Of a stretch of DNA of 64,000 nucleotides, positions 2,021 to 42,319 are shown in pieces (the first letter of the stretch is position 1; every line of letters begins with the position of its first letter). Both the position numbers and the translations under genes were made by a program. The DNA is taken from contig CAYQSO010000002.1 in NCBI GenBank assembly GCA_964420205.1, forward strand, positions 7,765 through 71,764. The letters are read 5' to 3'. Under the pieces are notes generated by a model. The model saw only the letters and a list, made by a program, of their open reading frames with translations. It made no database searches and was not told the DNA's origin. This DNA is from an uncultured Candidatus Saccharibacteria bacterium. Lineage in GTDB: Bacteria > Patescibacteriota > Minisyncoccia > UBA6257 > JAGOQP01.

Positions 2021-2498
2021 TAATTGCCCTTTCTAAAAGAGATTCGAAAGCTGCTTCTTCATTACTATACCAAGAATTAGACAACATATCTTTTATCGCA
2101 ATATCTAACATCTTTTCTAAAGTAGTTCTAGTTATATTAGCTTTATCTAACTCTTCTTGAACTCTTACAAGGTCTGCTGTTTTTTGATTAAGAGAATCCA
2201 CATCAGATTTTACTTTTGCTCTAATATTTTTTATTTCTGTCCTTAGCCTACTCTCCTTTTGTTTTAAAAAACTTTCTTTCCTAACTGCATCTCCCACCAT
2301 AACTCTTCCCGAAGTATAATCTATTAATCTTAAATCACACAATTGGGAATGAATTGCCCCCTCAGTTCTTCCAAAATATTTTGCTAATTTCGGTATGGAC
2401 ATACCATTTACAAACATATTTGTAAGTAAGTCTTTTAATTCTTTTGTCCATGGTTCCATGTGATTTCTATACTTCTTTTTCATTTCACTAATTGTCAT
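2013..2498 (-). CDS. HTH DNA-binding protein (sigma region-4-like helix-turn-helix) with C-terminal coiled coil
   Basis: MSIPKLAKYFGRTEGAIHSQL is an HTH-like segment; the remainder is predicted coiled coil. Confidence 0.35.
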   Translation of the reverse strand: MTISEMKKKYRNHMEPWTKELKDLLTNMFVNGMSIPKLAKYFGRTEGAIHSQLCDLRLIDYTSGRVMVGDAVRKESFLKQKESRLRTEIKNIRAKVKSDVDSLNQKTADLVRVQEELDKANITRTTLEKMLDIAIKDMLSNSWYSNEEAAFESLLERAING

Positions 2499-2655
2499 TT
2501 TCTTTCTCCCTATACTATTTCAAATAATAACCTAATACTAAGGAATTGAAATTCCTGTCTATTAAATCTTAAATTAATATTTTGTCCAGCCCAACCAAGA
2601 ACAGTTTCGTATTTCTATTTGTTAAGTACTCGATATCTTTTTCGTACTCTAAAAT

Positions 2656-2844
2656 CTATTGTCTTAGTTTATAAATTTCTGCTTTTGCTTTATTTGCAAG
2701 TGTTACTCCTGTCATATGTTTTACCGGTCTTCCAGTCGTACCGCAAACACTGTTCCGAAGCTTATCTTGGTAAAACACATAATAAGATAATAAACCACAA
2801 CCTTGCCTGTCTTCGTAAGGATAACTTATTAACTTCTTTCCCAT
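2656..2844 (-). CDS. hypothetical small protein
   Basis: 62-aa ORF of non-low-complexity composition in line with flanking minus-strand genes; a GA-rich stretch precedes its start. Confidence 0.3.
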   Translation of the reverse strand: MGKKLISYPYEDRQGCGLLSYYVFYQDKLRNSVCGTTGRPVKHMTGVTLANKAKAEIYKLRQ

Positions 2845-2856
2845 TTTTTCTTCTTC

Positions 2857-3033
2857 CTATACTCTTGAATATCTACTACACATTTCAAAACAAATATCTT
2901 CTTTATTATAAACTGGCTCATACATTTCAAAATTTTTACACTTATAAGCATACCCACACTTACCTTCCGGTAACGCCCTGCCCCTTTTACAGGTAAAACA
3001 GCACTTATTTTCTTCCTTTTTATATTTATACAT
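2857..3033 (-). CDS. hypothetical small Cys-rich protein (not in ORF track)
   Basis: Manual translation: MYKYKKEENKCCFTCKRGRALPEGKCGYAYKCKNFEMYEPVYNKEDICFEMCSRYSRV (58 aa, 8 Cys). It is abutted by the next minus ORF. Confidence 0.3.
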   Translation of the reverse strand: MYKYKKEENKCCFTCKRGRALPEGKCGYAYKCKNFEMYEPVYNKEDICFEMCSRYSRV

Positions 3034-3041
3034 TCTACTAC

Positions 3042-3380
3042 CTATAAGTACATAATTGCAAGATAATTTATTAAGAGATGTGCTGTATTGTCTCTAATGA
3101 TATTTATCCAAACTATCAACCAAACTGGTCTATCAGATTTATTACTATTAAAATAGTTTATTATATTATCTATATACTCACCAAATTTAATATGATCTAT
3201 TATAGCATGCGATAAACATATAACGAGCAAAGCTAATGAACTTTGTGTAATAAGTAAAAATGGTAAGATATATGTCGCAGCATGTTGTAATGCTAATCCG
3301 AAATTCTCTTTTTTACCAAGTGCCTGCCTATCTGTTTGTAGCCAATAGTCACCTATCAAATGAGCTATTAATTGCTCCAT
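3042..3380 (-). CDS. small integral membrane protein
   Basis: Three hydrophobic helices (YILPFLLITQSSLALLVICL, VWLIVWINII, LLINYLAIMYL); overlaps the QueC-like gene by 32 nt. Confidence 0.4.
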   Translation of the reverse strand: MEQLIAHLIGDYWLQTDRQALGKKENFGLALQHAATYILPFLLITQSSLALLVICLSHAIIDHIKFGEYIDNIINYFNSNKSDRPVWLIVWINIIRDNTAHLLINYLAIMYL

Positions 3381-4145: not shown

Positions 4146-4678
4146 AGATTAATTAGAAAGGATTAAAAATGAAAAACAAAAAATTAATAGTATAGGGTGG
4201 ATTCTGGTATACACACCAAGCTTTCACTACACAGTCATTCACCATTATTCCAGCATCTACCCAACTAATACTTGCAATTATTAATTGATAACAGTAGTAG
4301 AGATTTTCACTCTAAAATTTCACATCCAATACCATTTATTCTGTCTACGTAACTGTTTAAGAATGTGGCCTTTGCTACTTTAACCTCGTACAGAATCTTT
4401 TATTGAAGAAAATCTTCAATTAACCACAAGTACTTATATTTCCTTTGCAAGATATTTCAACCTTGTTCCAGATAACTTTCCTAAGATTTACGAGTCTGTT
4501 ATGGCTTATAGTTACTTACTACTTCCTTCGATTCGCTTTTGACAAAGCTATGAAGTCTATTCCAAGACTCTCTCCAGAATACCTTATGTTCTTGATCAAC
4601 ATATTCAGTCACCATACTATTAAATTTTCAAAGTTCAACTCAACTATATAAATAGCTTACCATGTTATTTAAATAAAA

Positions 4679-5572
4679 TCAACTACTTTTTAAAATATAT
4701 TTCCTAACATCTACTAACAATTTTTCTAAATTTACATGTTCATAGATTCCTGAAGTAGAAAGAGCATTAATTTCTACTACTGCTTCGCACAGGTCACTGC
4801 CACTTGCCCAATAACAAACATCTATAGTGAAGCAATCTAAATCTATATTATGTATAATTTCTTCTACGTTTTCAAAAGTAGATTTAAATGGCTTTGGATC
4901 TATTGCAACAGTATTGTTTACATATAATGAATAAGTAGAAATCTTCTTACCTACTATATAAAACCTGTATTCATACATTATTTCTTTTTCAGTAGATAAA
5001 ACAAGAATTGTATCTTTACTTACTCTAAGGTTATTTAATTTCATCTTCATATCAAATGGACCAAAAGCAACAAATGATTCAAAAATCTTATCGCCTCTAT
5101 CTGGTTTTACAAAAATCCCATTTTTATGTTTCTTAGTATGGGATAGAATACGATCATAATCATGATAAAACTGCTCATAAAAATCCCCCATTAAAGTCCA
5201 CGCTGGTACAAATAAACAATCTTTATTTAATAAAAATTGTTTAAGAATATTGTAATACCTGCTTACGTTATAAAACTCATCAAAACCATAAAATAAAAAA
5301 TTATACCTCTTACCAATACTAGGATAATTTTCAAAATCTATATGTTCTGTAAGCTTTCTAATATTTTGAATACTTGTAAAACCTGTATACAACTGATCTT
5401 TTTTAATGCTAGGGAATTGGTATCTTAAATTATTTGGGCTACTAAAACAAGTTTGCATATCATAAACTTGTCTACTTTTATCACCAAAAGATTTTATTAT
5501 TTGTTTAACTTCCTTAAACTGTTCTTTAGATGAAAATATTATATCTTGTAAAAACCATGTAATCTTAGACAT
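4679..5572 (-). CDS. ATP-grasp family protein
   Basis: C-terminal CEAVVEINALSTSG resembles the ATP-grasp E-x-N/Mg motif; GIFVKPDRGDKIFESF resembles the ATP-grasp lysine loop. 297 aa. Confidence 0.4.
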   Translation of the reverse strand: MSKITWFLQDIIFSSKEQFKEVKQIIKSFGDKSRQVYDMQTCFSSPNNLRYQFPSIKKDQLYTGFTSIQNIRKLTEHIDFENYPSIGKRYNFLFYGFDEFYNVSRYYNILKQFLLNKDCLFVPAWTLMGDFYEQFYHDYDRILSHTKKHKNGIFVKPDRGDKIFESFVAFGPFDMKMKLNNLRVSKDTILVLSTEKEIMYEYRFYIVGKKISTYSLYVNNTVAIDPKPFKSTFENVEEIIHNIDLDCFTIDVCYWASGSDLCEAVVEINALSTSGIYEHVNLEKLLVDVRKYILKSS

Positions 5573-5891
5573 TACTATTTTCCACTATTTAATATTACTA
5601 TAAATTAAAACACAGGTTAAAAGACTTGAACTCTTACTAAACGGGTTGGAGCCGTTTGTGCTACCGATTACACCAAACCTGCAAAATAAAACAGTAGTTT
5701 TTCATCAATACGGAACTATAAAACTACCAAAAATAGTCAGCGATTCTTTAACTAGTATTATTCGCTTAGGAACTTTGTTCAAAGTCTTAACAACCTTTAT
5801 CTTGTTAAGCACTTATCTAGAACAGGGAGAAACACTACCGTCTATTAATATTATAATAGCAAATTAAATATACTATGTCAAGCCTAAATTT

Positions 5892-6539
5892 TTAAAATTC
5901 TATCCCTTTTCTCGCAGGAATGGTTATTAACGTTGCCCCGCAATTAGGACAATAATTACTCCTATATTCAAAACTTCTTTTACAGACCTCACAATGCTTA
6001 TCGAAATAATGTTTAACACATCTAATGTCTGAAAATAAATCTGATATGTCTTTTATTTTATCATATAAAGAGTCTGACCATATCCTACCCGTTAAAACAA
6101 GCTCAAGATTAGATGGTTTTTCTCTTATAAAATCAAAAAACTGTTTCTGAGTAAGTAACCCAAGATTTAAAGCAGGTAATACTTCATCTAAAATCAAGAT
6201 ATTGAACGGGTGCTCATTATTTTCAGTGAGGGTTAGTTTTTCTACCATCAACGACCACGTATTTTGAACGAGCTCTTTATCTTCAGAAGTTTTATTATGT
6301 TCCATTACAATTCTATTAGAGTTATGAGACTGGATTATTGTTATTTTATCTTGGAAAAGACCACACGTCTTTATTTCACCATACTCTGTGTTGTCATCCC
6401 CTTTTAAAAATTGAACAATAAAAACTTTCCAATTTTTAGCTATTGACCGAAACGCAAGTCCAAAAGCACTAGTAGTCTTCCCTTTCCCTGAACCCGTATA
6501 GGTTTGTATGAACCCGTGATTTTTTAATTCATGTCCCAA
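5892..6539 (-). CDS. cobA: ATP:cob(I)alamin adenosyltransferase (CobA/BtuR/CobO family) with C-terminal zinc-ribbon extension
   Basis: TYTGSGKGKTTSAFGLAFRSI...VFIVQFLKG matches the CobA P-loop (TGNGKGKTTAAFG...VVQFIKG). ILILDEV and LVLTGR...VKHYFD match the remaining CobA blocks. An extra CEVCKRSF...CPNCG lies at the C-terminus. Confidence 0.8.
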   Translation of the reverse strand: MGHELKNHGFIQTYTGSGKGKTTSAFGLAFRSIAKNWKVFIVQFLKGDDNTEYGEIKTCGLFQDKITIIQSHNSNRIVMEHNKTSEDKELVQNTWSLMVEKLTLTENNEHPFNILILDEVLPALNLGLLTQKQFFDFIREKPSNLELVLTGRIWSDSLYDKIKDISDLFSDIRCVKHYFDKHCEVCKRSFEYRSNYCPNCGATLITIPARKGIEF

Positions 6540-6556
6540 AATCCATACCTACCTTT

Positions 6557-9500
6557 CTAACGTATGGGGCATACCCCATTTTCACAATCACTACCTAAAT
6601 CATCATCTAAATTATATTGTTTTTCATATTTAGCTATCAATTCGGGTGTTATTTTACCAAATTGTTTATTTAACTTATTATATTCTTCTTCTGTAATTGC
6701 TTCATAAGGGGCTAAAGGGTATTTAGCATCATACAAAGGTAAAAAAGATATTCCAACAAAATCATCCCAATTCTCATAAACCCAATCTATTACACCTGCC
6801 CATTCATTATCTCGAACAGTAACCGTGATAGATGTGTTATGGTCTGTGTAATTTCTCATGAACATTTTATAAGTTTCTAATTGTTCTATTGCACTAATAT
6901 CATATTTATTTTTACCTTCGGGTGACTTTACATAAAAATCTATTACATTAGTATCACAAGTTTCAGGGTCCTGTCCTACTTCAGGTGATATATTATATCC
7001 CAATTCTTCTGCTACTTTTAATAAAGGGTCCCCTGAATTAATTCGCACTCTTCTAATATAGTAAGGGGAGTGTGAATGATGAACACCCGGAGATATAGTG
7101 GGAAGTAAACTAAGTGTTCCAGAAGGTTTAATTGTAGTGACTAACTTAGGGGTATTTCTTCCTAGGGAATTTGCTATTTTAGTTGCTTCCGTACGTGCTG
7201 TTTCTCTTAGGAGTTTTAAAATAGATACTTGGTTCTCTTCCGACTTATCGTAGAGTAAATTCACTGCGTCTTGCCACCCACTTAAAGCTACCCCTAGTAA
7301 CATATGTTCTTCTTGGACTTTTTTCCATTCTGGTAACTCAATATTTACACAAGCCATTCTATACGAAGCACGTGTAAACGTCCTAACAGCATTTAATATT
7401 TCTTCATTAAGCTCCCCATCTTTTACAAAAGATTTTACATTAATCTCTACTAAATTACAAAATCCTTTAGAAGGTAAAAGTATCTCACAATTATGAACCA
7501 TAAAACCATTTACTATGCCCCAATGAGATAAAGGTTCTTCGAAATCAAAAACATCATGCTCCCCTATATGAGAAATATCTTCTATCGTAACAGTATTATA
7601 GTCACGTATTGAATCATTTTTCTTACAGTAAGACTGAAAAATCAAGCATTTACCTTTTAAATCCTTTGCTTTGCAATTTGAACCATCCTCAAGCATAAAA
7701 ATATGGTCTTCTGTACATTTTATAATTCTATTATTAGACATTTTTAACCTAATACAAGGTTTACGACCAGTAAACCAAACTTTGCCTTGTGATATATTTC
7801 CATCAGCATTTATTATATCTATTTGCTTCTCATTCAGTTCTTTAAAAGTTTTATAACCTTTTGATGTCAATAATTTCATATCCCCCGTAAAACAACAGGG
7901 ATTTAGCCCTTCCATAGTAGGGAGTCTACGTTGAGCCTCTTGTTTATTAATAAAGCCAGGTTCACCTGTAGTTTTTATACTGTTAAATATTTCTACCAAC
8001 TCTTCTTTCGACGGTCTTTTATTGAATAGAATACTATTGTTGCTCGATACCCTATGTGTTTTGTTTGGGTCAGATACCCACGCACCATCTTCATTTTGAT
8101 AGTAAATACCTTGTTTAGCCAGTCTCACGTCTTCATCGTCTTTATCAAATAAACAAACTAATGCAGTCCTTCTTACACCCCCAACCTGAACTGCGCATCC
8201 TACTAAATTACATATATCTAAAATGTCTATAGTTTTTAAACTACCATTAGACCTACTTACAATACCTATAATTTTCTCAAACAATATTTTAAGGGGGACA
8301 TGCCCACTTGCATAACCACCAAAAGTTTTTAAGGGGGCGCCTTCAGGTCTAACATTATCGAAGTCTACTAATATAGTAGATAATAGAGGGTTCTCTAAAC
8401 ATTTGAACAAGTACCTTAAGGCACCTACCCAACCCTCCTTAGAATCCCCTACAACAATAGTAGCGACGTTACCTGTGGTTTGTAATGTACTAAACTCTTC
8501 TTTATCTATTTTTTCAGAATATTCTTTAGATAATATTCTAATACTTGTATTTAAATTAGAAAAAGCACTAATATTTTCTATTACATCTAAAAAACCAACC
8601 CCACAACCTAATAAGAGGAGATAAAATAACTCACAGATATCTTCTGTATTATCTATTTTTGTAAAAGAACAATTTTTAGTCAATATATTATTCGCCAGAG
8701 TAAATGATTCTGTTTCTGGTTCAACAACACACCAAACATCTTCTATAATATCTGTTTCTTCTACACCTTTCACAACCCACGAAGGTTCAAAACTTGTTTC
8801 TTTTACACTTGACTTATGTTTACTATTCAAAAAGAAATCATCTGGTACATGTTTTGAATATAAATTCAATCTATAATTCGGAGCGTATTCTCCAGTATAC
8901 GGTGAAAGTTCTCTATTTAATTCAACTTTTCCACAATCAATACCTAATATAGAAAATATACTTTTAATATGGTCTAATGTGTTTTTATTAGAATTACTTA
9001 TTGAGATATTACTCTTGTAATAAGACCCATCTGTGGCAAATAAGCCCATCACAAACCCCATTAAATATTCCACATTAGAGTTCAGAGATGGGAGATTTTT
9101 CCATGTATTTGGTAGGCCATATATCACTTTCTGGTTATATTTTCCAGCGGTACATTGAGACCCTGTTGTAAAATATAATGCAAGTTCCTGCTTATTATCT
9201 ACTAAATGAACCCTACAATGGTTCATTTTTTTATTATATGTCCCATCTCCAAAAACCATACCATGTTGTATCCCAACAGAACACGGAACTATATTAGTTT
9301 GTTCATATCTTCTTTTCTCTCTCAAAATATCGCCATTTTTTAACTCATTAGTAGTCTTAACAATAAATTTTTTCTCAGACTTGTACCTTTTTACATACCA
9401 CCTATGATTTTCTGTAGTGTAAATAATATCTTCTCTTTTACCTCTACCAACAATCAACTTTACCAATTTAGACTTTCCGAAATTTCTAATAGTAGCAGTT

Positions 9501-9928
9501 TTCCACCCACCAGTAGAGGATAATATATCTACGTTATCACCATCACTAAAATCATTAAATGACTTTATTCCTTGCTTTGTTATAAATTCTGTATCTGATT
9601 TAAAACAGTTAAAATTACTAGAGGCATATTTTTTAGAGCTCTCTGTTCCACCTACCCATAATGTTCTGCCGCTTAAAAATCCTTTAAGGTTAAATATCGT
9701 ATCAAATAATTGCTCTGCTTCTCTTATAGAAACTCCATGAACTAACGAACAATTATATTCTACTGCTCTCCTAACTGTCTCCCACCAATACTCTCTTCTA
9801 TTTTGTTCTGGTAAATATCTTGAATAAGTTCTATAATAAACAAACTCTCCCAATGAAGTCATCGGTGGATTCACATCTTTATATTTACTTATAAATTCTT
9901 CACTTAATAACATTAATTTATGCCTCAC
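6557..9928 (-). CDS. nrdJ: adenosylcobalamin-dependent class II ribonucleotide reductase precursor, interrupted by two inteins
   Basis: N-terminal EFVYYRTYSRYLPEQNRREYWWETVRR is the class II RNR signature; NPC...EI thiyl-radical site; 1123 aa. About 450 aa is accounted for by two Hint/intein insertions. Confidence 0.85.
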   Translation of the reverse strand: MRHKLMLLSEEFISKYKDVNPPMTSLGEFVYYRTYSRYLPEQNRREYWWETVRRAVEYNCSLVHGVSIREAEQLFDTIFNLKGFLSGRTLWVGGTESSKKYASSNFNCFKSDTEFITKQGIKSFNDFSDGDNVDILSSTGGWKTATIRNFGKSKLVKLIVGRGKREDIIYTTENHRWYVKRYKSEKKFIVKTTNELKNGDILREKRRYEQTNIVPCSVGIQHGMVFGDGTYNKKMNHCRVHLVDNKQELALYFTTGSQCTAGKYNQKVIYGLPNTWKNLPSLNSNVEYLMGFVMGLFATDGSYYKSNISISNSNKNTLDHIKSIFSILGIDCGKVELNRELSPYTGEYAPNYRLNLYSKHVPDDFFLNSKHKSSVKETSFEPSWVVKGVEETDIIEDVWCVVEPETESFTLANNILTKNCSFTKIDNTEDICELFYLLLLGCGVGFLDVIENISAFSNLNTSIRILSKEYSEKIDKEEFSTLQTTGNVATIVVGDSKEGWVGALRYLFKCLENPLLSTILVDFDNVRPEGAPLKTFGGYASGHVPLKILFEKIIGIVSRSNGSLKTIDILDICNLVGCAVQVGGVRRTALVCLFDKDDEDVRLAKQGIYYQNEDGAWVSDPNKTHRVSSNNSILFNKRPSKEELVEIFNSIKTTGEPGFINKQEAQRRLPTMEGLNPCCFTGDMKLLTSKGYKTFKELNEKQIDIINADGNISQGKVWFTGRKPCIRLKMSNNRIIKCTEDHIFMLEDGSNCKAKDLKGKCLIFQSYCKKNDSIRDYNTVTIEDISHIGEHDVFDFEEPLSHWGIVNGFMVHNCEILLPSKGFCNLVEINVKSFVKDGELNEEILNAVRTFTRASYRMACVNIELPEWKKVQEEHMLLGVALSGWQDAVNLLYDKSEENQVSILKLLRETARTEATKIANSLGRNTPKLVTTIKPSGTLSLLPTISPGVHHSHSPYYIRRVRINSGDPLLKVAEELGYNISPEVGQDPETCDTNVIDFYVKSPEGKNKYDISAIEQLETYKMFMRNYTDHNTSITVTVRDNEWAGVIDWVYENWDDFVGISFLPLYDAKYPLAPYEAITEEEYNKLNKQFGKITPELIAKYEKQYNLDDDLGSDCENGVCPIR
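7490..7894 (-). mobile_element. intein 2 in nrdJ (about 135-aa mini-intein at the NPC active site)
   Basis: NPC|CFTGDMKLL...GFMVHN|CEILLP: N-terminal Cys, C-terminal HN, +1 Cys, and no endonuclease domain. Coordinates by residue counting (aa 679..813). Confidence 0.6.
8672..9607 (-). mobile_element. intein 1 in nrdJ (about 312 aa, LAGLIDADG homing-endonuclease type)
   Basis: Starts with Cys right after NFN (CFKSDTEF...) and ends ...ILTKN before the CSF extein. LAGLIDADG-like blocks HGMVFGDGTY and LMGFVMGLFATDGSY. Coordinates come from residue counting (aa 108..419). Confidence 0.65.
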
Positions 9929-12625: not shown

Positions 12626-13960
12626 TCATTCTAAAACAATTACATTTGAAGTTACTAATTCGCTTTTTCTTGCTTCATTGTACTCTCTTTTGTTGTTGCT
12701 TGCAACAACTACTTGAGTTTGTTTTAACACTCCACAAGCTTTACTAACTCTAACAGAATTAAAGTTAGTTCCCGACAAGCCATCGGTACATGTATTCCTT
12801 ACTTCATTAAGTAGGATATAATCTTTACAGTTCTTGAGATTAACTGCTGCATTGTAGTCTCTTTGGTGCTCTGCACCACAATTACTACATTTCCAGTTTC
12901 TATCTTTTAATTTTAGTTCTTTATTCTTCTCTCCACAGCTACTACATAACTTACTACTTGGAAAGAATTTATTTACTTCTCTTACTTCTATATTATGTTT
13001 TGTACACTTCTGTACAAGAACTTGTTTAAAATAGTAAGGTTTATTTTGAAGAATAGTTTTAGAAAGATGTTTGTTCCTAACCATTCCTTTAATATTTAAG
13101 TTTTCAACTGTAACATATCTAGGTTTCCCCTTAACTATGTTATCTATACATTTATTAGTATAAGAGTTTCTTATTTGTTCTAACCTGTAGTACACTTTTT
13201 CTACTCTTAGTTTATTTTTAATATAATTGTTACTTACTTTATCTCTCTTTTCTTTCTTCTTAGCTTCGTACTTTCTACTTAAAGCTCTCTGTTCTCTTCT
13301 TAATTTCTTTTCTAACTTTTTAACTCTAGTAGTTTTATTAATGTTTTTGTATTCTTCTTTGTTAGAACATGTTAAGAAAGTACTTATTCCCCAATCAATA
13401 CCAATACCTTCATTACAATTCTTATTATCTTTACTACTCTCTTCATCTGTTATAACAGAGATGAAATATCTATTAGATCTCTTAGTTATTACTCCACTTA
13501 TTATTTTATTGTTTCCTGTAGGGAGGTATCCTTTCTCTTTCAGAGAAACCTCTCCGAACATAGGAATTTTAATTTTATGCCTAGAACATCTTATAGGTCT
13601 GTTTGCCTCTACTCTAACAAAATAAACTCCTGTCTTGTCTTTAGAAGCTTTTTTAAATTTAGGAAATCCTTTCTTTGATTTAAATGCTTTTTGGTAAGTT
13701 GAATTACAATTATCTATAGTCTTTCTAAGAGCTTTACTCCCTGCTTCTTTCAACCAATGTTTATCTTCGTTCTCTTTTAAATAAACATTATTAAACCATT
13801 TAGAGAACTCGTAGTTATTAAGATATTTTTCTCCTGCGGAGTAACGTTCTTTATTAACAGAAATAAAAAGATTCCAGACAAATCTACATGCAGAAATTGT
13901 AAGCTTGTAAAGCTTCTCCTGTTCTTTATTTAGTTTTACTTCTGTCTTGTAAGCTTTCAT
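12626..13960 (-). CDS. tnpB: TnpB (IS200/IS605-family OrfB; OMEGA RNA-guided RuvC nuclease), copy 1
   Basis: Canonical MKAYKTEVKLNKEQEKL N-terminus, C-terminal zinc finger CSSCGEKN...CSNCGAEHQRDYNAAVNL (RuvC-III). The track ORF extends to 14086, but Met43 at 13958..13960 is the likely start, judged by alignment to copy 2. Confidence 0.85.
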   Translation of the reverse strand: MKAYKTEVKLNKEQEKLYKLTISACRFVWNLFISVNKERYSAGEKYLNNYEFSKWFNNVYLKENEDKHWLKEAGSKALRKTIDNCNSTYQKAFKSKKGFPKFKKASKDKTGVYFVRVEANRPIRCSRHKIKIPMFGEVSLKEKGYLPTGNNKIISGVITKRSNRYFISVITDEESSKDNKNCNEGIGIDWGISTFLTCSNKEEYKNINKTTRVKKLEKKLRREQRALSRKYEAKKKEKRDKVSNNYIKNKLRVEKVYYRLEQIRNSYTNKCIDNIVKGKPRYVTVENLNIKGMVRNKHLSKTILQNKPYYFKQVLVQKCTKHNIEVREVNKFFPSSKLCSSCGEKNKELKLKDRNWKCSNCGAEHQRDYNAAVNLKNCKDYILLNEVRNTCTDGLSGTNFNSVRVSKACGVLKQTQVVVASNNKREYNEARKSELVTSNVIVLE

Positions 13961-13993
13961 TGATAAAAAGAAAAGTTCTAAGAAATTATTTTG

Positions 13994-14057
13994 TAAGCAG
14001 ATACAATTCTTCCTAGAACTAAAATTAATATAAATCTTATTTAATTGTATCTGCTTA
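13994..14057. repeat. perfect 15-bp inverted repeat (taagcagatacaatt / aattgtatctgctta) with 34-nt spacer in the presumed IS left end
   Basis: Read directly from sequence (13994..14008 and 14043..14057); lies between the real tnpB start and the over-extended track start. Confidence 0.7.
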
Positions 14058-14175
14058 ATATTATAATTTAACTTAAAATTTTTCATTTAGATTTCCCTGT
14101 AAAGGTATTAAAAATGAATATGTTTTACATATATTTGATTATGTTATGGGAGACTGTTCATTATCTTCTCTCCTC

Positions 14176-15069
14176 TTAATTAAATACAGTACTTGTTTCA
14201 CGATGTTTTTCTCTTATATTTCCTATGCAAATGGAGGGTGCTTTTAATTCTATTAAAGTTTTATGGAGAGATATATCTCCCTCCCCTCTCCTTTGTAGTT
14301 TAGCTAAAACATCGGCTACTTTTATAAAAGTAATATTTTCTTTTATTACTTTAGAATCAAAAGCACCATCTATAAAAATTTCCTCATCCTGTTTACACGG
14401 AACTTTTAATTTTACCATTTCACCAGTTTCTGTATCGAACTGTAAATAAAATATTTGTCTATCTCTATTGTAAGTATTTTTATCATGTCTTGTAAAAGAC
14501 CCTATTCTATATAAGATACTATTTCCCACAAAAAGATCATCATACGGCGAATGATCATGATTAAGACACACATACTTATAATTAAGTTTTTTAATATCTT
14601 CTGCTGTTAAAGACTCTTCAAGGCACAAATCCATCTCGTAATAATTGTGTCCTAAAAGTACACCCTCATTCTTCTCATCTACTGGTATTTTACTAATATT
14701 CTTTTCACATAGAGAGACCCCAAACAAAACATTATCTAAATAAAAAAAGTTAGTCTTTACGTCTATTACACCTGTTAACATCAAAGAGCCTAATGTAGTT
14801 TTTTCTAAATTATAATTTCTTAACATTACATCGTGGTTTCCGGGAATTACAATAAACTTCCCTTTGTGCCGTTTAAAGAACTTATAGACTATATTAAAGA
14901 AAAAAGTACTATTTGCAAAACTATGAAATAAATCTCCTGGGATAATACAAACATCATTATTATTTGCAACGTATTCTAGTTTATCTAAAGTACTTTGGAG
15001 AAAATTATCTTTTCTTATACGAGGATTCCTCTCTTGTAAATGTATATCATTTATTATTGCTATTTTCAT
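14176..15069 (-). CDS. SbcD/Mre11-like calcineurin-type nuclease (T4 gp47-like)
   Basis: Metallophosphoesterase motifs INDIHL, PGDLFH, PGNHD and GHNY...H; downstream of an SbcC-like ATPase. Confidence 0.65.
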   Translation of the reverse strand: MKIAIINDIHLQERNPRIRKDNFLQSTLDKLEYVANNNDVCIIPGDLFHSFANSTFFFNIVYKFFKRHKGKFIVIPGNHDVMLRNYNLEKTTLGSLMLTGVIDVKTNFFYLDNVLFGVSLCEKNISKIPVDEKNEGVLLGHNYYEMDLCLEESLTAEDIKKLNYKYVCLNHDHSPYDDLFVGNSILYRIGSFTRHDKNTYNRDRQIFYLQFDTETGEMVKLKVPCKQDEEIFIDGAFDSKVIKENITFIKVADVLAKLQRRGEGDISLHKTLIELKAPSICIGNIREKHRETSTVFN

Positions 15070-15078
15070 TATTAATTC

Positions 15079-15666
15079 CTATATTACTTTTAATTGACAG
15101 AACTCTGGTTTGTGTCCTTTTTGCCAAACACAATGACAATAAGCTATCGAATCTGTCTTATTTGGTTCCCCTGGAATAAACCCCATTCTTTTATGATGTA
15201 CAAAGCAGTATTTAGGCATGTTCTCTTGCCAAAAACTAAAACGATCTTTAGACTCAAAGAAATTTAACCTAAGTAGCATTATAACGTATCCACCTTCTAC
15301 TGTGTCTAATAATGCTTTCTTAATTATATCTATTGCATTGTAAAACGGAGGATTTGTTATAATTAAATCCCATTCTATTTTTGAAGATACTTCCATAGTT
15401 AAATAATTACCTTTTAAGTCAGCCTTACTATCCTCTCTTATATCTACTGTCATTACAAAGTTATCAGTAAATTTACTAAGAGCATTAGGGTAACTCATTT
15501 TATATTTATCTGCACCTCCCGCACAAGGGTCTAATATATTTAAAGCATTTTCAAATATGTTGCCTTCTACTTTTATAAACTCCCCTAGAAATTTTTCTAT
15601 TTCATGTATTGGAGTTACGTAAAAATCTGCTTTATGACGTTCATAACCTCTATTAGTACTTGACAT
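15079..15666 (-). CDS. N6-adenine (NPPF-type) methyltransferase, small
   Basis: SAM-binding DPCAGGADK followed by catalytic ITNPPFYN; 195 aa; embedded in the SbcCD cluster. Confidence 0.5.
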   Translation of the reverse strand: MSSTNRGYERHKADFYVTPIHEIEKFLGEFIKVEGNIFENALNILDPCAGGADKYKMSYPNALSKFTDNFVMTVDIREDSKADLKGNYLTMEVSSKIEWDLIITNPPFYNAIDIIKKALLDTVEGGYVIMLLRLNFFESKDRFSFWQENMPKYCFVHHKRMGFIPGEPNKTDSIAYCHCVWQKGHKPEFCQLKVI

Positions 15667-15965
15667 TACACAGCCTCACAACTTTCTATTATGTCTTCTA
15701 ACATGCTTGCTATTTTATTTAAATAAGTTCTATCTTTTTCACTTTTAAATATCTCTCTAACGTGTAAAGTAACCCCTTCAACATAGCTTCTCTGACTTAG
15801 TTGGTAACAACCATCTATTTCATCTAATAAAACTACATCTATTAGTTGTAATAATCCACCTAACATTTGTTCTTCTACCGGATATAAACTAGAAGACTCA
15901 TCTATAAGCAAAGCACATATATACGACTTCAAGTCCATTAATTTTTGTGTTAATTTACTATTCAT
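15666..15965 (-). CDS. hypothetical protein
   Basis: 99-aa ORF tightly coupled to neighbours. Confidence 0.3.
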   Translation of the reverse strand: MNSKLTQKLMDLKSYICALLIDESSSLYPVEEQMLGGLLQLIDVVLLDEIDGCYQLSQRSYVEGVTLHVREIFKSEKDRTYLNKIASMLEDIIESCEAV

Positions 15966-16596
15966 TTGTTTTTTCTAAGATAGATACATTCCCATTTGCT
16001 ACCAATAAAGTTTCATCTGCGTGGTCCATATGCCTCGGATCATGTGTCACAAGGGCTAAAATTACTTCTTTTGAATCTGATAATTGTTTCAAAAACTCAA
16101 AATACCTCGGTGCATACGCTGCTGAAATCCCTGCTAATTTTTCATCTAAAAATAAAACTTTGCTCCCTAAATTTAAAATATAGTATAATTTAAGGATATT
16201 TCCTATTACTATAGCAGGTCCCTGTCCATCGTCTTCTAGCGGATCTAATCCATAAATATCTTTATCTAGATCATCTAAAGATAAATCAAGAGTCTTATTT
16301 CCTCTCTTGTCCTCTAAAATAAGATTTACTTCTAAATTACAATCATAAAAAGTATACTTTAAAGCAGTATTTATAGTATTTTTTAAAGCACCTATAGACT
16401 TATCATAAATCACATCTACTGCCTGTGAGTAAAACTTTTTACTATCTCTACTTACACTTAACTTTTTATTCAGTTCTTCTATATTCTTACTTACTTCTTC
16501 TATATTAAATTCTATACTATTTTTCATCTTTTGTATAGTATCTAATTCATTTAAACAAAAAGAAAGAGAATTTATTGTACTATCTTCTGTTAACAT
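15958..16596 (-). CDS. SbcC/Rad50-like ABC ATPase, C-terminal lobe (Walker B, D-loop, H-loop)
   Basis: VLFLDEKLAGIS (Walker B and D-loop) and LVTHD (H-loop); no Walker A, so it is the C-terminal half only. Confidence 0.6.
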   Translation of the reverse strand: MLTEDSTINSLSFCLNELDTIQKMKNSIEFNIEEVSKNIEELNKKLSVSRDSKKFYSQAVDVIYDKSIGALKNTINTALKYTFYDCNLEVNLILEDKRGNKTLDLSLDDLDKDIYGLDPLEDDGQGPAIVIGNILKLYYILNLGSKVLFLDEKLAGISAAYAPRYFEFLKQLSDSKEVILALVTHDPRHMDHADETLLVANGNVSILEKTNE

Positions 16597-16884
16597 CTAA
16601 CGTACTAGCCCTTCATCTAACTTTTGTTTTAAAGCACTATAATCTGCAATTACTTGCTCTGCTTCTTTTCTTTCTTCTGTAATAAGGTTACTTAGTTCTA
16701 CTTCCTTTTCTCTGAGTTTCGGAATATCCTGTAAAGAAGAAAATCCAAAAGATTTCATTATTTCTACCCCACGCTTCTTCTTCTCATTTGCCCTATCTAT
16801 TAAAATATTCTTTTCCTGAGCGCACTTATTTCTCTCTTCAATAAGTTTTTTATGTTCTTGTAAATCTTTTTCTGTTAACATCAC
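16597..16884 (-). CDS. coiled-coil segment protein (possible SbcC/Rad50 arm fragment)
   Basis: 95 aa, heptad-rich and charged; stop/start abutment on both sides (TAG then ATG at 16594..16599). Confidence 0.35.
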   Translation of the reverse strand: MMLTEKDLQEHKKLIEERNKCAQEKNILIDRANEKKKRGVEIMKSFGFSSLQDIPKLREKEVELSNLITEERKEAEQVIADYSALKQKLDEGLVR

Positions 16885-17243
16885 TATTCATCCTCTTTAT
16901 CATCTACTTGCGTACGTATAAATAATTCATTAAAAATTTCTTGTATAAGATCATCCGGTAGTTTTAAAATTTCTCTAATTACACTGTCAACATTGGTCAT
17001 TCCCACATATTCCATATCATCGGTACTATCATAAAACCCTGCCCAATCACAGTAGTCACAACCTTCCCCAAAACATTCATCACACTTTTCTACGGCTTCT
17101 CTGAAATCTCCCCTAGGGTCAAGCTGCCCTTCTGTTCCAAATCTATCATTACTTTTTAAATTATTTAAAGCATCTTGAAGCAAATTACAAAGACCACTTG
17201 ACGAACCATTTTCCAGTATATTTTTGAAAAAATCTTTACTCAC
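16884..17243 (-). CDS. acidic CxxC protein (possible Rad50 zinc-hook-like fragment)
   Basis: CDECFGEGCDYCDW cysteine pairs; 119 aa; overlaps the upstream ORF by 8 nt. Confidence 0.3.
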   Translation of the reverse strand: MSKDFFKNILENGSSSGLCNLLQDALNNLKSNDRFGTEGQLDPRGDFREAVEKCDECFGEGCDYCDWAGFYDSTDDMEYVGMTNVDSVIREILKLPDDLIQEIFNELFIRTQVDDKEDE

Positions 17244-18489
17244 AACTATTTCCTACTAATAATTGACCACATTTATCACAACGGTATTTCTCATACTCTT
17301 TTAATTTAACATCTGTATCAAATATTTTTTTATCTAGTATATTTTCATTTCTAGTACAACTCTCTATATCCGACTCAATCTCTTCTACCAATTTTATACT
17401 CTTTACTACTTCTATATATTTGTCACTAATTGTTTCTACTAAATCTATTTTATCTTGTTGCTTTACTATTTTACAATAATTACTTAGAGATTTCAACTCA
17501 CCTAAAGCGTTTTTTAAAAGAATATATTTATTCAGTATTTTTAAAGATATTTCTTCTATGGGAATTAAGTCTATTTGAAATTGATTCTCTATTTCTTCCA
17601 GTTCTATTAAAGCACTTAAAATCTTCCCGTACTCAATTAAACTATCAAAAGAAATTATCTCTTCTTTATTTTCTCCCCCTATTATTTTACAGTAGTAGTA
17701 TATCTCTTTGAGTTCTCTTAAACTCTTTACAACCTCAACATACTCATTTAGTATATCGTAAGGCCTTACTTCTACTTCAGTAGTATCCTCGATAATATTT
17801 AGATAATTAACTGTCTCTTCTACTGCTTCTATACTAATAGAAACCTTAGAAAAGTCCTTATTTAATTTAATAAGATTATCTCGTACTCTTTCTAAATTTT
17901 CTTTTTTAACACTCTTCTGTAAGTCTTCTATTAAAATAATTTTATCTTTATTTCTCTGAAACTCTATTTCTTTCTCTTTTATCTCAGAAGAAAGTAAATC
18001 TTCTTCCTGTTTATAGGCTTGAAAAATCTTAGCACTATCTGAAACAGAAAATATATTTTCAAATAATTTAAACAACTCCGAGTTTGTTAGCCCGTAAGGA
18101 AATAGTATTTCTTTTATTCCTTCTATATTATAACACTTATTCTTATTCCCGTCATAAGTAAAACCAGTATCTTGTAGTAACTTAAATAGATTAGAGTTCC
18201 CTACTTTCTTATACTCCTCACCATTAATTATATACATAGATTCTTTCTTAGTACGTACCCATGTAATATCATTACCATTATATAGCATACGTACTTTTGC
18301 ACAATCTGTTCCAATTCTTATTTTATTTTGAGACCCCGATGGATTAAGTAAAAGATATTTTAACGCCCTAAAAATTGCAGACTTACCATTCCTACTTTCA
18401 CCTGTTATAAGAGTTAACCCTTTATTAAAAACAATATGTTCTTTTTTAATAATCTCAAAATTTTCTATAAATAATTCTAATTTATTCAT
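17236..18489 (-). CDS. SbcC/Rad50-like ATPase, N-terminal lobe with coiled coil (T4 gp46-like N-half)
   Basis: Walker A GLTLITGESRNGKSAIFRALKY at the N-terminus, then about 300 aa of coiled coil ending in CDKCGQLLVGNSC. Confidence 0.65.
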   Translation of the reverse strand: MNKLELFIENFEIIKKEHIVFNKGLTLITGESRNGKSAIFRALKYLLLNPSGSQNKIRIGTDCAKVRMLYNGNDITWVRTKKESMYIINGEEYKKVGNSNLFKLLQDTGFTYDGNKNKCYNIEGIKEILFPYGLTNSELFKLFENIFSVSDSAKIFQAYKQEEDLLSSEIKEKEIEFQRNKDKIILIEDLQKSVKKENLERVRDNLIKLNKDFSKVSISIEAVEETVNYLNIIEDTTEVEVRPYDILNEYVEVVKSLRELKEIYYYCKIIGGENKEEIISFDSLIEYGKILSALIELEEIENQFQIDLIPIEEISLKILNKYILLKNALGELKSLSNYCKIVKQQDKIDLVETISDKYIEVVKSIKLVEEIESDIESCTRNENILDKKIFDTDVKLKEYEKYRCDKCGQLLVGNSCE

Positions 18490-18729: not shown

Positions 18730-18761
18730 TAAAGAGAAGGATAAACGTACAAAACAATTTC

Positions 18762-19937
18762 CTAGTCTTCTTCGTCCTCATATTCGTCATTATTATCGTC
18801 TTCAACTTCCTGGCTACTTAAAACAAGCTTATATTGGTCTCTTTCCTTTAAAAAACTTATTAACTCTCCTCTATTTTCATGCACAAACACATTTAACTCA
18901 CGTAAAGTTAACTTTTCTTTTGCACTTTTTACAGGGAGTTCATCGCTTAATAAATAAATATTACTTTTTTTAGTGGGTTTATAAATATAACCAATCCCTT
19001 CTAGCATTCTTCTCAAAATATGCCAGTTATGAATATTCTTACCATAATGTACCAACGTACTCACATCAGGAAGTCTAAAAAATCTGTTCTTACAGGTCTT
19101 ACCTTTTGTACTAAGAGTAAGAATATATTTTTCAGTTATAGTTTCCTCACCAAAGCAAGTCTGTACCTTAACTTTTTTAATTTCTTTATCACTTACTCTC
19201 TTAGACAACTTACTAATAATACTTGCATAATGAACATCTGCCTTTGTTACAGCGTACCTGTCTTTTTCATCAAACAGCCCTGCACCTTGGTTATCTCTTA
19301 CTTGACATATTGATACCAAAGTAATACCTTTAGCCTCTAATTGTGGGACATACTGCTGTAAAAAAACTGAACGTGATTTAGCATTTAATCCAAAATTATT
19401 TTTTTCACAATTATTATCTAATAAGGTAGCTGAAATAACAGATGATATACTATCAATTACTATAAACTTAATATCTTTAAGCCTTGTTGGTGGTTTAGAT
19501 GATAATAATTTCTTAAAAAAATCTCCTAAATATTCGTAAGTTAAACTTCCCCCCCTATAAAGTAAATCCCCTGAATTTATAAAATCAGATACCTTCTCAT
19601 CAGGGTCATCAGAAAACCTTATTGTATTTAAAAGACCTTTAGACCCCTCTATATCAAAATACGCTACCTTATATGGTACTTTAATTGCTTTATGCCTTTT
19701 TATTAGCCTTGCACTACAATCAAGCATAAGAGTTGATTTTCCTACACTTGGAGGGGAATAAAAAAGTAAATACCCACCTTGTGGGATACCTAAACCATTA
19801 GTCAACCCTAAGTCAATTAGCATATTTCCTGTTTCTATAAAAGACATTTCAGTCTCTTCTGATGATGTTAAAAAATCTTCTAAAAACGCATTAGCAGTCT
19901 TTTTAGTCGTAGTTTCTTTTCCTTCATTATCTATCAT
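18762..19937 (-). CDS. RecA-superfamily recombinase (UvsX-like)
   Basis: 391 aa (same length as T4 UvsX); Walker A LLFYSPPSVGKSTLML, YFDIEG, FIVIDSISS (Walker B region) and an acidic C-terminal tail. Confidence 0.65.
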   Translation of the reverse strand: MIDNEGKETTTKKTANAFLEDFLTSSEETEMSFIETGNMLIDLGLTNGLGIPQGGYLLFYSPPSVGKSTLMLDCSARLIKRHKAIKVPYKVAYFDIEGSKGLLNTIRFSDDPDEKVSDFINSGDLLYRGGSLTYEYLGDFFKKLLSSKPPTRLKDIKFIVIDSISSVISATLLDNNCEKNNFGLNAKSRSVFLQQYVPQLEAKGITLVSICQVRDNQGAGLFDEKDRYAVTKADVHYASIISKLSKRVSDKEIKKVKVQTCFGEETITEKYILTLSTKGKTCKNRFFRLPDVSTLVHYGKNIHNWHILRRMLEGIGYIYKPTKKSNIYLLSDELPVKSAKEKLTLRELNVFVHENRGELISFLKERDQYKLVLSSQEVEDDNNDEYEDEED

Positions 19938-41300: not shown

Positions 41301-42319
41301 TGATCATCGTGGCATGCATAAATAACTGTGCTCCTATCGTAGGGGCATACATACTTGAATTCACCCGGAAATTCTAACATAGTACGTCCTAGATACAATT
41401 TAGCACTTAACTTAAGTCCTGCCATTTTTGACTCCGCATCAAAAAGATACGGAAGTATCATAGAGTCAAAAAAGTTAACTTTTTCAATAGAATAACCTTC
41501 TTTCTTATACATATTAAGGTCAAATTCAGCATTATGGATTACTACTAACTTTGCACTTGTTAAAGCTTTATATAAAATATCAAGGGACTTTTTTGCACTT
41601 CTCTCATTTTCTTCTTCTGTTAAAACATAACTAGAAACTTCCATTTCAGATAAATGCTTTTCAAAGTCTCCTATCATACAGTCTATACTACCAAGTTTAG
41701 CTTCTACTACTTCTTTTTCTAAATCTTTAGAATTTTCAAGAAAGTTTTCTTTATCTTGTTTTAACCCATCTATTAATTTTTGCGTCTCTTCTCTTTGTCT
41801 CTGTAATTCTAATTGCTCCCTTACTTCTTTGCTACATATATTTCCATTATGTAATGAATACTCATACGTCTTTACCGTAGTCTGACTTACTCTTCCTGTT
41901 TTAGTATATACTACATTTCCTTCTTCATCTAATTTAGGAACTTTTTCTGAACCCACTTCTTTTTTTCGCATATGTCTCAAAGGGCAATAAATCCCCGAAT
42001 TGTCGTCCAGTGAAAGAGAGAACCCTACAATGTAATCACCACCTTCTTCTCGAGGTGAACTGTTCAGTCCAGTAGTTTCAGTGTCAAACCCGATTATCTT
42101 ATCTTTACAAAGTTCTACGAATTCTTCCAACTCTTCTAAAGTATTAACAAGTTTATAGTCCCCTAAATAAATAAGATTCCCTTCCTCATCGTATTTATGA
42201 AACTTATTATCAAACTCTCTATAACCATGTACAGGTATATATTTGTACAACGTTTTACTGCTTTTTTTCTTTTGTTCTACCTTTTGTTGAACATATTTTT
42301 TCTTATAATCTTTTGTCAT
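38354..42319 (-). CDS. family A DNA polymerase (3'-5' exo plus polymerase domains) precursor containing an intein
   Basis: Exo I IGFDTETTGL; polymerase motif A LSVDYSSQE, motif B RKIAKAVNFAINYS, motif C LSTIHDEVN. The likely true start is MTKDYKK, 12 codons inside the track ORF (which begins at 42355). Confidence 0.85.
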   Translation of the reverse strand: MTKDYKKKYVQQKVEQKKKSSKTLYKYIPVHGYREFDNKFHKYDEEGNLIYLGDYKLVNTLEELEEFVELCKDKIIGFDTETTGLNSSPREEGGDYIVGFSLSLDDNSGIYCPLRHMRKKEVGSEKVPKLDEEGNVVYTKTGRVSQTTVKTYEYSLHNGNICSKEVREQLELQRQREETQKLIDGLKQDKENFLENSKDLEKEVVEAKLGSIDCMIGDFEKHLSEMEVSSYVLTEEENERSAKKSLDILYKALTSAKLVVIHNAEFDLNMYKKEGYSIEKVNFFDSMILPYLFDAESKMAGLKLSAKLYLGRTMLEFPGEFKYVCPYDRSTVIYACHDDQTEVLTENGWVMWKDYNGEDLLATVNVEKDELEYQRPLRLYAYEYKGEMISYKSKHLDFCVTPNHNMLVKRAQHKEWVFKQAKDLLVEESGYKAPTEKKGSGKDSFHFSKNVNLTPVQLARLTGALLADGWIVQRGDKQVCYHIGLAVCSDKFKKELENMLMETNMGFRPNKREKGNSWVCYNKKFYNWIKPYMEGKAQKKYIPPEIFKMDSYCINEFLKYFNYCDGSRKTDSAWVFYTTSIKMANQLQELLMLGGRTSILTLKAPPKKDCVIRGRVIKRENVHQIYSVYTQRQKSVRYKKYQREIVPYSGVVYCAEVPNHTLITRRNGKVLVSGNCADSCCCLALFYYLYPKVKKLISTYPNIVEFNGKKFDVIKSDNTLIRYWIDYYGHTKLYIDKEEAKKYKEKAIEVITQLKEEIYNYFDIGIFNLSTSSKEFKNAMASKNIDTGARTDTDQISFGKKDGTRIFSKNLTDLRGIIEKLEKNEEGYFTKGFCASELHIREHVDMFYLYKILEAHGSDYFQVMQLNNNTIRVLSRAKRKNKNKKLVPLKKGSRILNRKYFLKILKIMLKKENEKLSILKKIQKYSTMNKAINSYIDKLTKVDECRMRYKLFGTASGRFASGNGSKSDKKTKNPYYIDLNAQNLSKPSGAIYKAYKSEKEGNILGWCFDLMSDEDIKNHTDSEDCYLVEGFSPNFNIRNCVVVPSFKKVNSKKKIILSVDYSSQEDVLLTNYSKDSVKLSNFREGIDPHTATAYAIWGRENYNKGLRKIAKAVNFAINYSGHSDSISKNSGIPLEHATALYDAYCEAFFGAMQWRQNEINKMWNNAGTTFTFCGRPRRFGSYVNMAERIEREAEDPRKGERESNNMISAAERRVSSHIIQGSAGDIMRIVLKKMYQKIFSISEKEKECAFLSTIHDEVNLYVDLDKIVEYTRLIEDIMYFSLPDWPLPIKATIGLGYRFGQIFDFKWVDDESRTTLIPKPL
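40295..41314 (-). mobile_element. intein in DNA polymerase (about 340 aa, LAGLIDADG type) inserted in the Exo III motif (YA|C..D)
   Basis: VIYA|CHDDQTEVLTENGW...LARLTGALLADGW...FLKYFNYCDGS...VPNHTLITRRNGKVLVSGN|CADSCCCLALFYYL; the extein junction restores the Y-x-x-x-D exo motif. Coordinates by residue counting (aa 348..687). Confidence 0.6.

Follow-up and report, generated by a model that had tools for sequence, protein, structure and literature searches.

A probable phage Mre11-Rad50-type module whose ATPase is divided among three collinear genes

The DNA analysed here, a 64,000-nt stretch of contig CAYQSO010000002.1 to which we refer as the window, carries a cluster of seven closely packed open reading frames (ORFs) on its minus strand, running from position 18489 to position 14176. 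We propose, with a probability of roughly 0.8, that this cluster encodes a phage Mre11-Rad50 (SbcCD)-type complex for processing DNA ends, in which the ATPase is made as three separately translated, collinear polypeptides. Rad50 and SbcC are usually described as one chain, with a coiled coil that runs up to a zinc hook and back. An earlier note, drawn up from the letters of this DNA, had suggested an SbcCD/Mre11-Rad50-like module with a natively split, translationally coupled ATPase, and this suggestion is borne out by homologues of the individual pieces and by about 20 related loci. The genes of the module, together with the recombinase gene that lies upstream of it, are as follows.

17236..18489, minus strand: ORF1, N-half of the split ATPase, 417 amino acids (aa); matches Pfam AAA_23, and its family profile matches Rad50
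16884..17243, minus strand: ORF2, acidic, cysteine-rich, 119 aa; singleton insert
16597..16881, minus strand: ORF3, here called B94, 94 aa; helix-loop-helix family by alignment
15958..16596, minus strand: ORF4, C-half of the split ATPase, 212 aa; Walker B and H-loop motifs
15666..15965, minus strand: ORF5 (D99), acidic and helical, 99 aa; slot occupied in every tabulated locus
15079..15666, minus strand: predicted N6-adenine-type DNA methyltransferase, 195 aa; phrog_799, motifs DPCAGG ... NPPF
14176..15069, minus strand: SbcD/Mre11-like metallophosphoesterase nuclease, 297 aa; Pfam Metallophos
18762..19937, minus strand: RecA/UvsX-like recombinase, context upstream of the module; phrog_97, E 5e-24

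The three-piece ATPase recurs across divergent loci

Contigs of up to 206 kb in ENA, JGI, Logan and IMG/VR were the source of related loci, which are cited below by our own numbers (L001 and so on) where they need to be told apart. About 20 distinct loci were recovered. They are divergent, sharing 30–45% identity, and all have the same gene order: RecA-like gene, N-half, B94, C-half, small ORF and SbcD-like gene. None of these loci joins any two of the three ATPase pieces, each of which has an ORF of its own, and no full-length or fused form was seen among the best 149 C-half representatives either. The continuous gp46-like ORF that the earlier note had proposed looking for in orthologous loci was likewise found in none of the ~20. 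Because the layout recurs in so many divergent loci, chance is excluded as its cause.

The junctions themselves are variable. The gap between the B94 and C-half genes is 0–5 nt in most lineages, across frames 0, 1 and 2, and is occupied by one methyltransferase gene in L003 and by three in L008 (0.7–2.4 kb). Between the N-half and B94 genes there are either 13–15 nt, with an AGGAG of their own, or an overlap, or a whole gene. Since the junctions use all three frames or contain whole genes, both indels and read-through can be excluded, and the alternatives of sequencing error and pseudogenization that had been raised for this locus fall to the same comparative data. Even a distant GC-rich metagenomic lineage (L043) has the same order, with an N-half (N454, hook CPTCG), an 83-aa ORF, MazG, a C-half (C267) and SbcD.

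Two further assemblies of the same phage were available. One of these (L004, from ENA) differs from the window by a single substitution over 9 kb, with no indels, and the other (L005) is identical to the window at the first two junctions; as both possibly derive from the same reads as the window, they rule out assembler artefacts only. The sole difference between the window and L004, at position 16841, lies within the B94 gene and alters the protein, both versions of which fall in one 90% cluster.

Other searches returned little. Megablast of the region against GenBank phages gave no match, nor did back-translated IMG/VR searches with single proteins. Scanning GTDB genomes with an alignment turned up no relative either, though a Bacillus prophage has a distant version (see below). 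Taken together, these comparisons indicate that the fragmented ATPase is a native and old design, composed of three conserved proteins and cut right after the hook motif.

The N-half ends just past a hook motif

ORF1 matches Pfam AAA_23 with an E value of 6e-10 (40.5 bits, against a cutoff of 27), and the best PDB matches of the N-half family profile are to Pyrococcus furiosus Rad50 (E 1e-9). Foldseek searches with the N-lobe, the confident part of the AlphaFold2 (AF2) model, returned Rad50 N-fragments (1f2u), SMC heads and RecF as top matches. The Walker A motif, GESRNGKS, occupies residues 29–36, and G30, S32 and K36 are invariant across the family. All 19 of the close homologues are stand-alone proteins, 368–417 aa in length.

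At the other end of the protein, a helix of 54 residues, confidently predicted by AF2, precedes a CxxC motif. In the window this motif is CDKCG (C404/C407) and stops 10 residues short of the end of the chain. The two cysteines are invariant (18/18 N-half sequences, mostly as KVCPLCG), and in the family as a whole, distant members included, they sit 5–20 residues from the C-terminus and not in mid-chain. The earlier note had placed the CxxC in ORF2, and this assignment has to be moved: the conserved motif at the C-terminus of ORF1 has the character of the Rad50/SbcC hook, with the chain ending directly after it.

The predicted arm between lobe and hook contains repeats. Residues 244–395 of the window N-half consist of four tandem repeats of ~37 aa, each comprising a helix and a loop (R1–R3, z = 9.0; R1–R4, z = 5.8). 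Judging by gaps in the alignment of the family, N-half homologues of 367–417 aa seem to differ in their number of repeats. If so, arm length would evolve via unit duplication, with the 94-aa partner unchanged.

The C-half supplies the remaining ATPase motifs, and B94 lies between

In the analysis at large, single-sequence PDB searches gave only weak matches to ABC (ATP-binding cassette) transporters and RecF; profiles and fold searches revealed more. For ORF4, no Pfam family scored above cutoff. Its AF2 model, with a mean predicted local distance difference test (pLDDT) score of 74.7, contains a 79-residue helix (residues 4–82) followed by an alpha/beta lobe. When this fold was compared to the predicted viral structures of BFVD, stand-alone proteins of 193–219 aa came top (TM 0.79), followed by full-length viral Rad50/SbcC. 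In the family alignment, G124-Q125-G126 and L148, L150, D151, E152 and K153 are invariant columns, and the H-loop histidine, H185, is nearly so. The window protein has VLFLDEK as Walker B (LFLDEK at 148–153) and VTHD as H-loop. Its signature is GQG, not SGG, and becomes RGGG in distant members.

The C-half is also a free-standing protein wherever it was found. Close homologues are stand-alone in 30 of 30 cases (205–231 aa). An exhaustive search yielded 423 clusters (50% identity) at E ≤ 1e-10, the best 149 of which have a median length near 214 aa, with none longer than 350 aa. A separate BFVD match with a resemblance to the C-half fold is Q0E500, a 153-aa '16.8 kDa Rad50-like protein' of Spodoptera frugiperda ascovirus 1a; stand-alone Rad50 lobes may thus occur in viruses of eukaryotes too.

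The gene for B94 was found between the N-half and C-half genes in every locus recovered. Homologues fall into 349 clusters at E ≤ 1e-3, and the best 120 are nearly all exactly 94 aa long. In an alignment of 11 lineages, every sequence starts with ML, and the protein consists of two ~40-residue helices linked by a conserved (Y/F)G(F/Y)xSLxD loop. Matches of the B94 profile to PDB were limited to coiled coils and designed helical hairpins. Read along the operon, the genes follow the domain sequence of a normal Rad50 (N-lobe, ascending arm, hook, descending arm, C-lobe), and we infer that B94 forms the stretch of arm that descends from the hook. A fusion of B94 to the C-half was sought among the longer C-half representatives and rejected: the N-terminal extensions of the 260-aa proteins are unlike B94, and P0216 looks chimeric.

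Tight junctions suggest a single coupled operon

Direct reading of the sequence upholds the ORF coordinates proposed earlier, as well as junctions of 8, 1–2 and 0 nt between the first four genes. ORF1 and ORF2 overlap by 8 nt (GTGAGTAA). The next junction reads TAG-TG-ATG; a GTG start at 16884 would give ORF3 a 1-nt overlap with ORF2, and an ATG start at 16881 a 2-nt gap. The latter is the likely start (94 aa), because all ORF3 homologues begin with ML. ORF3 and ORF4 are joined by TAGATG, with a spacing of 0 nt and the frame retained, ORF4 and ORF5 again overlap by 8 nt (ATGAATAG), ORF5 and the methyltransferase gene overlap by 1 nt (TAATG), and a 9-nt gap separates the methyltransferase and SbcD genes. 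The first 12 nt of the B94 gene (16881..16870, minus strand) and of the C-half gene (16596..16585, minus strand) are identical, ATGTTAACAGAA, which is partly expected because both families begin with ML.

A terminator scan gave one terminator-like hairpin, at 18708–18730, past the RecA-like gene and upstream of the cluster. The promoter scan was uninformative (40 found versus 40.1 expected). Given the tight junctions and the terminator-like hairpin upstream, the seven genes look like one translationally coupled operon. The conserved core within it comprises five genes, namely N-half, B94, C-half, SbcD and, probably, ORF5.

Junctions carry lineage-specific genes

ORF2 encodes an acidic protein (pI 4.05) with a CxxC-x4-CxxC arrangement (CDECFGEGCDYC). 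It has no Pfam, PHROG, PADLOC or NCBIfam match, forms a one-member cluster, and lacks a homologue in all related loci; searches beyond these loci found none either. The corresponding slot is empty in L003, L006, L010, L014 and L015, and is filled by unrelated small ORFs in L001, L002 and L013 and by a methyltransferase gene in L008. Because it is a singleton without homologues, in a slot that relatives leave empty or fill otherwise, ORF2 is lineage-specific cargo and not an ATPase fragment; the four fragments counted in the earlier note reduce to three conserved pieces. The same junction holds methyltransferases or other cargo in relatives, and ORF2 could be an anti-defence or DNA-mimic-type protein.

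The methyltransferase gene, which had been taken as belonging to the design of the module, is also a variable, lineage-specific cargo gene. Its product matches phrog_799 (E 2e-47) and, below the cutoff of 28.1 bits, Pfam Dam (E 3e-5, 24.1 bits), and its translation includes an S-adenosylmethionine-binding motif I, DPCAGG, and a catalytic motif IV, NPPF. No homologue was found between the small ORF and SbcD in other related loci. The gene is absent from L001, L002 and L010, and the methyltransferases of L003 and L008 are of another family and stand at another junction. L003 has one such gene at a split-ATPase junction (2341..3084), and L008, with which L009 was noted, has four N6_N4 methyltransferase genes and a 58-aa ORF (4616..8011). 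In the distant L043, the gene found at a split-ATPase junction is MazG (5675..6004).

ORF5 is a different matter. Treated as a bystander before, it occupies a slot that is always filled: an ORF of 71–125 aa comes next after the C-half in 10/10 tabulated loci. A profile of the 97–99-aa family found there spans window ORF5 end to end (E 2.8e-5, in a single comparison); hhalign gave only a weak match (probability 4.8%), and homology is tentative. ORF5 is probably a conserved accessory member of the module, as far as its position and this similarity can tell.

The split-ATPase junctions are empty (2–15 nt) in L010, L014 and L015, and L010 and L014 are without any insert. No homing endonuclease was seen at the module junctions in the loci examined. 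Collectively, these data suggest that the split-ATPase junctions act as insertion sites for cargo genes.

The SbcD-like nuclease and its genomic setting

The product of the last gene scores well against Pfam Metallophos (E 8e-11; 43.1 bits, cutoff 21.5) and phrog_100, an SbcD-like family (E 7e-11), and its best PDB matches are to P. furiosus Mre11 (E 3e-5). Phosphoesterase motifs I–V are intact in the translation, as DIH (residues 8–10), GD (44–45), GNHD (76–79), LGH and NHDH. Orthologues of ~298 aa (E 1e-58 to 1e-97) lie downstream in every complete related locus. At the opposite end of the module, a RecA/UvsX-like gene lies directly upstream of the N-half gene in every locus long enough to show it. 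The module adjoins RecA/UvsX-like and resolvase-like genes within a replication region that includes polymerase, ribonucleotide reductase, helicase and ligase genes.

Several other features were recorded. The ribonucleotide reductase ORF (6557..9928, minus strand) encodes 1123 aa, of which residues 416–1123 account for the family match, and the DNA polymerase ORF (38354..42355, minus strand) encodes 1333 aa, with an internal stretch that weakly resembles families of thymidylate synthase and PhoH-like proteins; an extra domain or an intein may be present in either ORF. The phage also has a pair of TnpB/IS605-OrfB paralogues with 75% identity, at 12626..14086 and 53422..54777, both on the minus strand. 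The former is directly downstream of SbcD, where relatives carry dUTPase, and no TnpA was seen beside it. An Rfam RAGATH-18 RNA (12667..12738, minus strand; 64.7 bits versus a gathering score of 44.9) overlaps the 3' end of this TnpB gene, and is plausibly the guide or omega-type RNA of the TnpB element. In L001 (10520..11182) and L002 (10498..11163), the gene directly after SbcD belongs to Pfam PF25188 (Tad6).

Distant versions of the module occur in cultured phages

The same module is present in the Bacillus cereus prophage phBC6A51, as BC1852–BC1857. BC1852, labelled 'Exonuclease SbcC', is a 518-aa counterpart of the N-half with the C-terminal end VCPLCESPMSFDHSH. It is followed by a 100-aa insert (BC1853), a 77-aa B94-like protein (BC1854, E 4e-4), the C-half (BC1855, 211 aa, labelled 'Chromosome segregation ATPases', E 5.6e-9), a 125-aa ORF in the slot that follows the C-half (BC1856) and a gene labelled 'Exonuclease SbcD' (BC1857).

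In Bacillus phage 0305phi8-36 (L019, 3972..8008), gp8 is a fusion protein in which SbcD precedes an N-half terminating in CPTC (E 8.6e-26). The 92-aa gp7 is B94-like (E 6.6e-7), and gp6 is an insert. The C-half is encoded on its own, two ORFs downstream, as gp5, labelled 'ATPase' (E 5e-8). According to a 2011 survey, gp8 'lacks one P-loop segment'; the link to gp5 was not made (PMC3175470). The published Mre11/Rad50 fusion of this phage is therefore a fusion inside a split system.

Stand-alone C-halves were also found in a 485-kb uncultured phage and in Microbacterium phage Magritte (gp2, labelled 'exonuclease'), vB_BboS-125, PHBA67-T, Tunturi_5 and Mvi-JY20. In Magritte the partner of gp2 was not located. 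Two other genes were considered: gene 247 ('ASCE ATPase', 412 aa) is not an N-half, and gene 1 has no detectable similarity to B94. A full-text literature search, whose coverage did not extend to the main ABC-ATPase classification and could hence have missed a prior mention, returned no description of a Rad50/SbcC made as separate polypeptides. The split module appears to be undescribed so far.

A proposed mechanism and the points against it

The account of these data that we favour is as follows. The N-half would contribute the lobe with Walker A and the rising part of the helical arm, its chain ending a few residues past the CxxC zinc-hook motif, and B94 together with the ~80-residue N-terminal helix of the C-half would form the returning arm. 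The lobe of the C-half, with its signature, Walker B and H-loop, would complete the ATP site, the N- and C-lobes pairing non-covalently into an SMC/Rad50-type head. Two such assemblies would dimerize, through ATP at the heads and zinc at the hooks, and the SbcD-like nuclease would dock on this ATPase scaffold. Spacings of 0–9 nt over the seven genes are expected to give coupled and balanced expression. Like T4 gp46/gp47, the complex would most likely serve recombination and replication that depend on RecA/UvsX, by resecting or opening the ends of DNA. The junctions between the pieces would tolerate cargo: ORF2 and the N6A methyltransferase in the window, and as many as four methyltransferases, or MazG, in other lineages.

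A number of observations weigh against this account. First, curated cutoffs were missed, on the ATPase side by Rad50 PRK03918 (16.6 bits versus 700) and recN (33.9 versus 407.85), both from NCBIfam, and on the nuclease side by TIGR00619 sbcd (20.4 versus 77.65 bits) and Mre11_Pyroc (20.7 versus 600). Of the ATPase matches, AAA_23 alone passes its cutoff, and that family is a generic one. Second, the canonical Q-loop glutamine was not evident in the N-half alignment, as read by eye. Third, the arm lengths are unbalanced. The N-half arm spans ~200–350 residues (in proteins of 367–518 aa), and B94 (77–100 aa) and the C-half helix (~80–137 aa) stay within their ranges despite this variation. The ~37-aa repeats of a helix and a loop in the window arm, modelled by AF2 at low confidence, also make it doubtful that the arm is a plain antiparallel coil of two strands throughout. 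Finally, the case for a recombination function is drawn from genomic context, and that function should be read as a prediction.

Alternative explanations

In the first alternative, the N-half and C-half form a two-chain ATPase and B94 (and ORF5) are independent accessory subunits, for example an SbcD/RecA adaptor or an arm clamp. B94 does keep a constant length while the N-half arm varies widely, its helical hairpin with a conserved loop is as adaptor-like as it is arm-like, and no fusion of B94 to either ATPase half occurs in the 149 representatives and ~20 loci. However, the order N, B94, C is kept even in 0305phi8-36, in which SbcD has moved and become fused upstream, and the B94/C-half junction is 0–5 nt in most lineages. 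Moreover, in the shortest N-halves (367–368 aa) the arm, at ~203 residues, is roughly matched by B94 plus the C-half helix, at ~176. We regard an accessory role for B94 as unlikely, and favour its assignment to the returning arm.

A second alternative is that the ATPase belongs to defence or counter-defence, as an ABC ATPase of the Lamassu LmuB, Septu PtuA, Gabija GajA or OLD-like kind, and stands beside the phosphoesterase by chance. The N-half has weak PADLOC matches to LmuB (E 7e-9), GajA (8e-6) and PtuA (2.5e-5), one JGI label reads 'OLD family endonuclease', and methyltransferase cargo is embedded in the cluster. Yet these matches fall in Walker A and coil regions of a generic kind, with poorer scores than the Rad50 matches in PDB, and no LmuA, LmuC, TOPRIM or HNH partner gene is present. 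The invariant partner is instead an Mre11/SbcD-type nuclease, the invariant neighbours are the RecA-like, resolvase, ligase, dUTPase and ThyX genes of a replication module, and a CPxCG hook is typical of Rad50/SbcC. A defence ATPase is accordingly very improbable here.

Third, the pieces could be joined into a single polypeptide by programmed frameshifting, by stop-codon read-through or suppression, or by protein or RNA splicing. Phages are known for recoding, the ORF3/ORF4 junction is an in-frame TAG, and the remaining junctions overlap. Against this, the frames at the junctions vary by lineage (0, +1, +2), some junctions hold 0.3–2.4 kb of unrelated genes, and N-half/B94 junctions have a Shine-Dalgarno sequence and ATG of their own. 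Stop-codon reassignment was considered and rejected: the sole tRNA in the window is Trp-CCA, with no suppressor, and the long ORFs (to 1333 aa) show use of the standard code. Split inteins were rejected as well, the pieces being too short to include intein halves and lacking intein motifs. There is little room left for a joined product.

That the fragmentation is mere artefact or decay, through indels in or pseudogenization of a single gp46-like gene, we dismiss: the ORF3/ORF4 junction of the window is indeed a single in-frame TAG and the other junctions are 1–2 nt off a continuous frame, but the three-piece layout is found in ~20 divergent loci and in cultured phages, each piece keeps its motifs and a uniform length, whole genes lie between the pieces in several lineages, and two other assemblies are free of indels.

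Implications

The three-polypeptide reading, if correct, has several consequences. One concerns the way in which changes of ATP state at the head reach the arm and hook: a natural chain end at the hook, with the return arm made by separate proteins, offers a ready-made test of whether the chain has to pass through the hook unbroken. The pieces also provide an annotation rule for hundreds of 'hypothetical' 94-aa and ~210-aa phage proteins, and they link the inconsistently labelled genes of phBC6A51, 0305phi8-36 and Magritte. As some of the hosts are cultured Bacillus strains, the system is open to experiment. The insertion sites at the junctions bear on how phage operons acquire counter-defence genes.

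A bolder version of the idea is offered as speculation, and is in our view less likely to be right than wrong. It holds that an old and large clade of phages uses a non-covalent Mre11-Rad50 arm cut at the zinc hook, an 'open' arm composed of the N-half, an exchangeable ~94-aa hairpin and the C-half, in which the repeat-built arm, variable in length, is something other than a classical coil of two strands and the breaks serve as protected sites for counter-defence cargo, among it methyltransferases, MazG and ORF2. Were this true, neither the entry of DNA nor the signalling from hook to head or back would require a continuous chain.

Comparison with known systems

The closest comparison is with the distant relatives in phBC6A51 and 0305phi8-36 (profile E 1e-8 to 1e-26), which share with the window an N-half ending in CPLC or CPTC, a 77–92-aa relative of B94, a 211–236-aa C-half, an SbcD-like nuclease and extra genes at the junctions. 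In their database entries each piece is annotated on its own, as 'SbcC', 'chromosome segregation ATPase' or 'hypothetical'.

T4 gp46/gp47 and E. coli SbcC/SbcD resemble the module in having Walker A and B lobes at opposite ends of an arm, a CxxC hook motif, an adjoining calcineurin-like nuclease and a setting among recombination and replication genes. Small ORFs stand between the ATPase and nuclease genes of the module, and likewise in T4 (46.1 and 46.2; PMC5105663). The features that define Rad50/SbcC are in part present in the module, namely the Walker A lobe fold, C-lobe motifs placed after a long helix, and a partner of Mre11/SbcD type. The single polypeptide with both lobes and an antiparallel coiled coil is not. 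Unlike T4 and E. coli, the module has an ATPase of 417 + 94 + 212 aa, cut just past the hook and ~80 residues above the C-lobe, and it differs further in its scores below curated cutoffs, the lack of a clear Q-loop glutamine and the ~37-aa repeats of the arm.

Two-chain Rad50/SMC constructs provide a physical precedent. In PDB entries 1f2u, 1ii8, 3qkr and 3kta, which are structures of Rad50/SMC heads, the N and C parts are separate chains, and a two-chain ABC head is therefore physically viable. In these constructs separate lobes form a working head, and the halves from the window match the same fragments in fold searches. The constructs are laboratory truncations without arm or hook, whereas the split in the module is natural and the arm and hook are kept.

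Genes in pieces are also known from lytic phages. Examples are the T4 topoisomerase gp39/gp60, the nrdA gene of Aeromonas phage Aeh1, which is interrupted by a homing-endonuclease gene, and split gene 43 DNA polymerases. The module resembles these in its collinear enzyme fragments, in their non-covalent reassembly (predicted for the module) and in the presence of foreign genes at some breaks. It differs in that its inserts are methyltransferases, MazG and small ORFs, with no homing endonuclease, and its split appears to be much older and more widespread.

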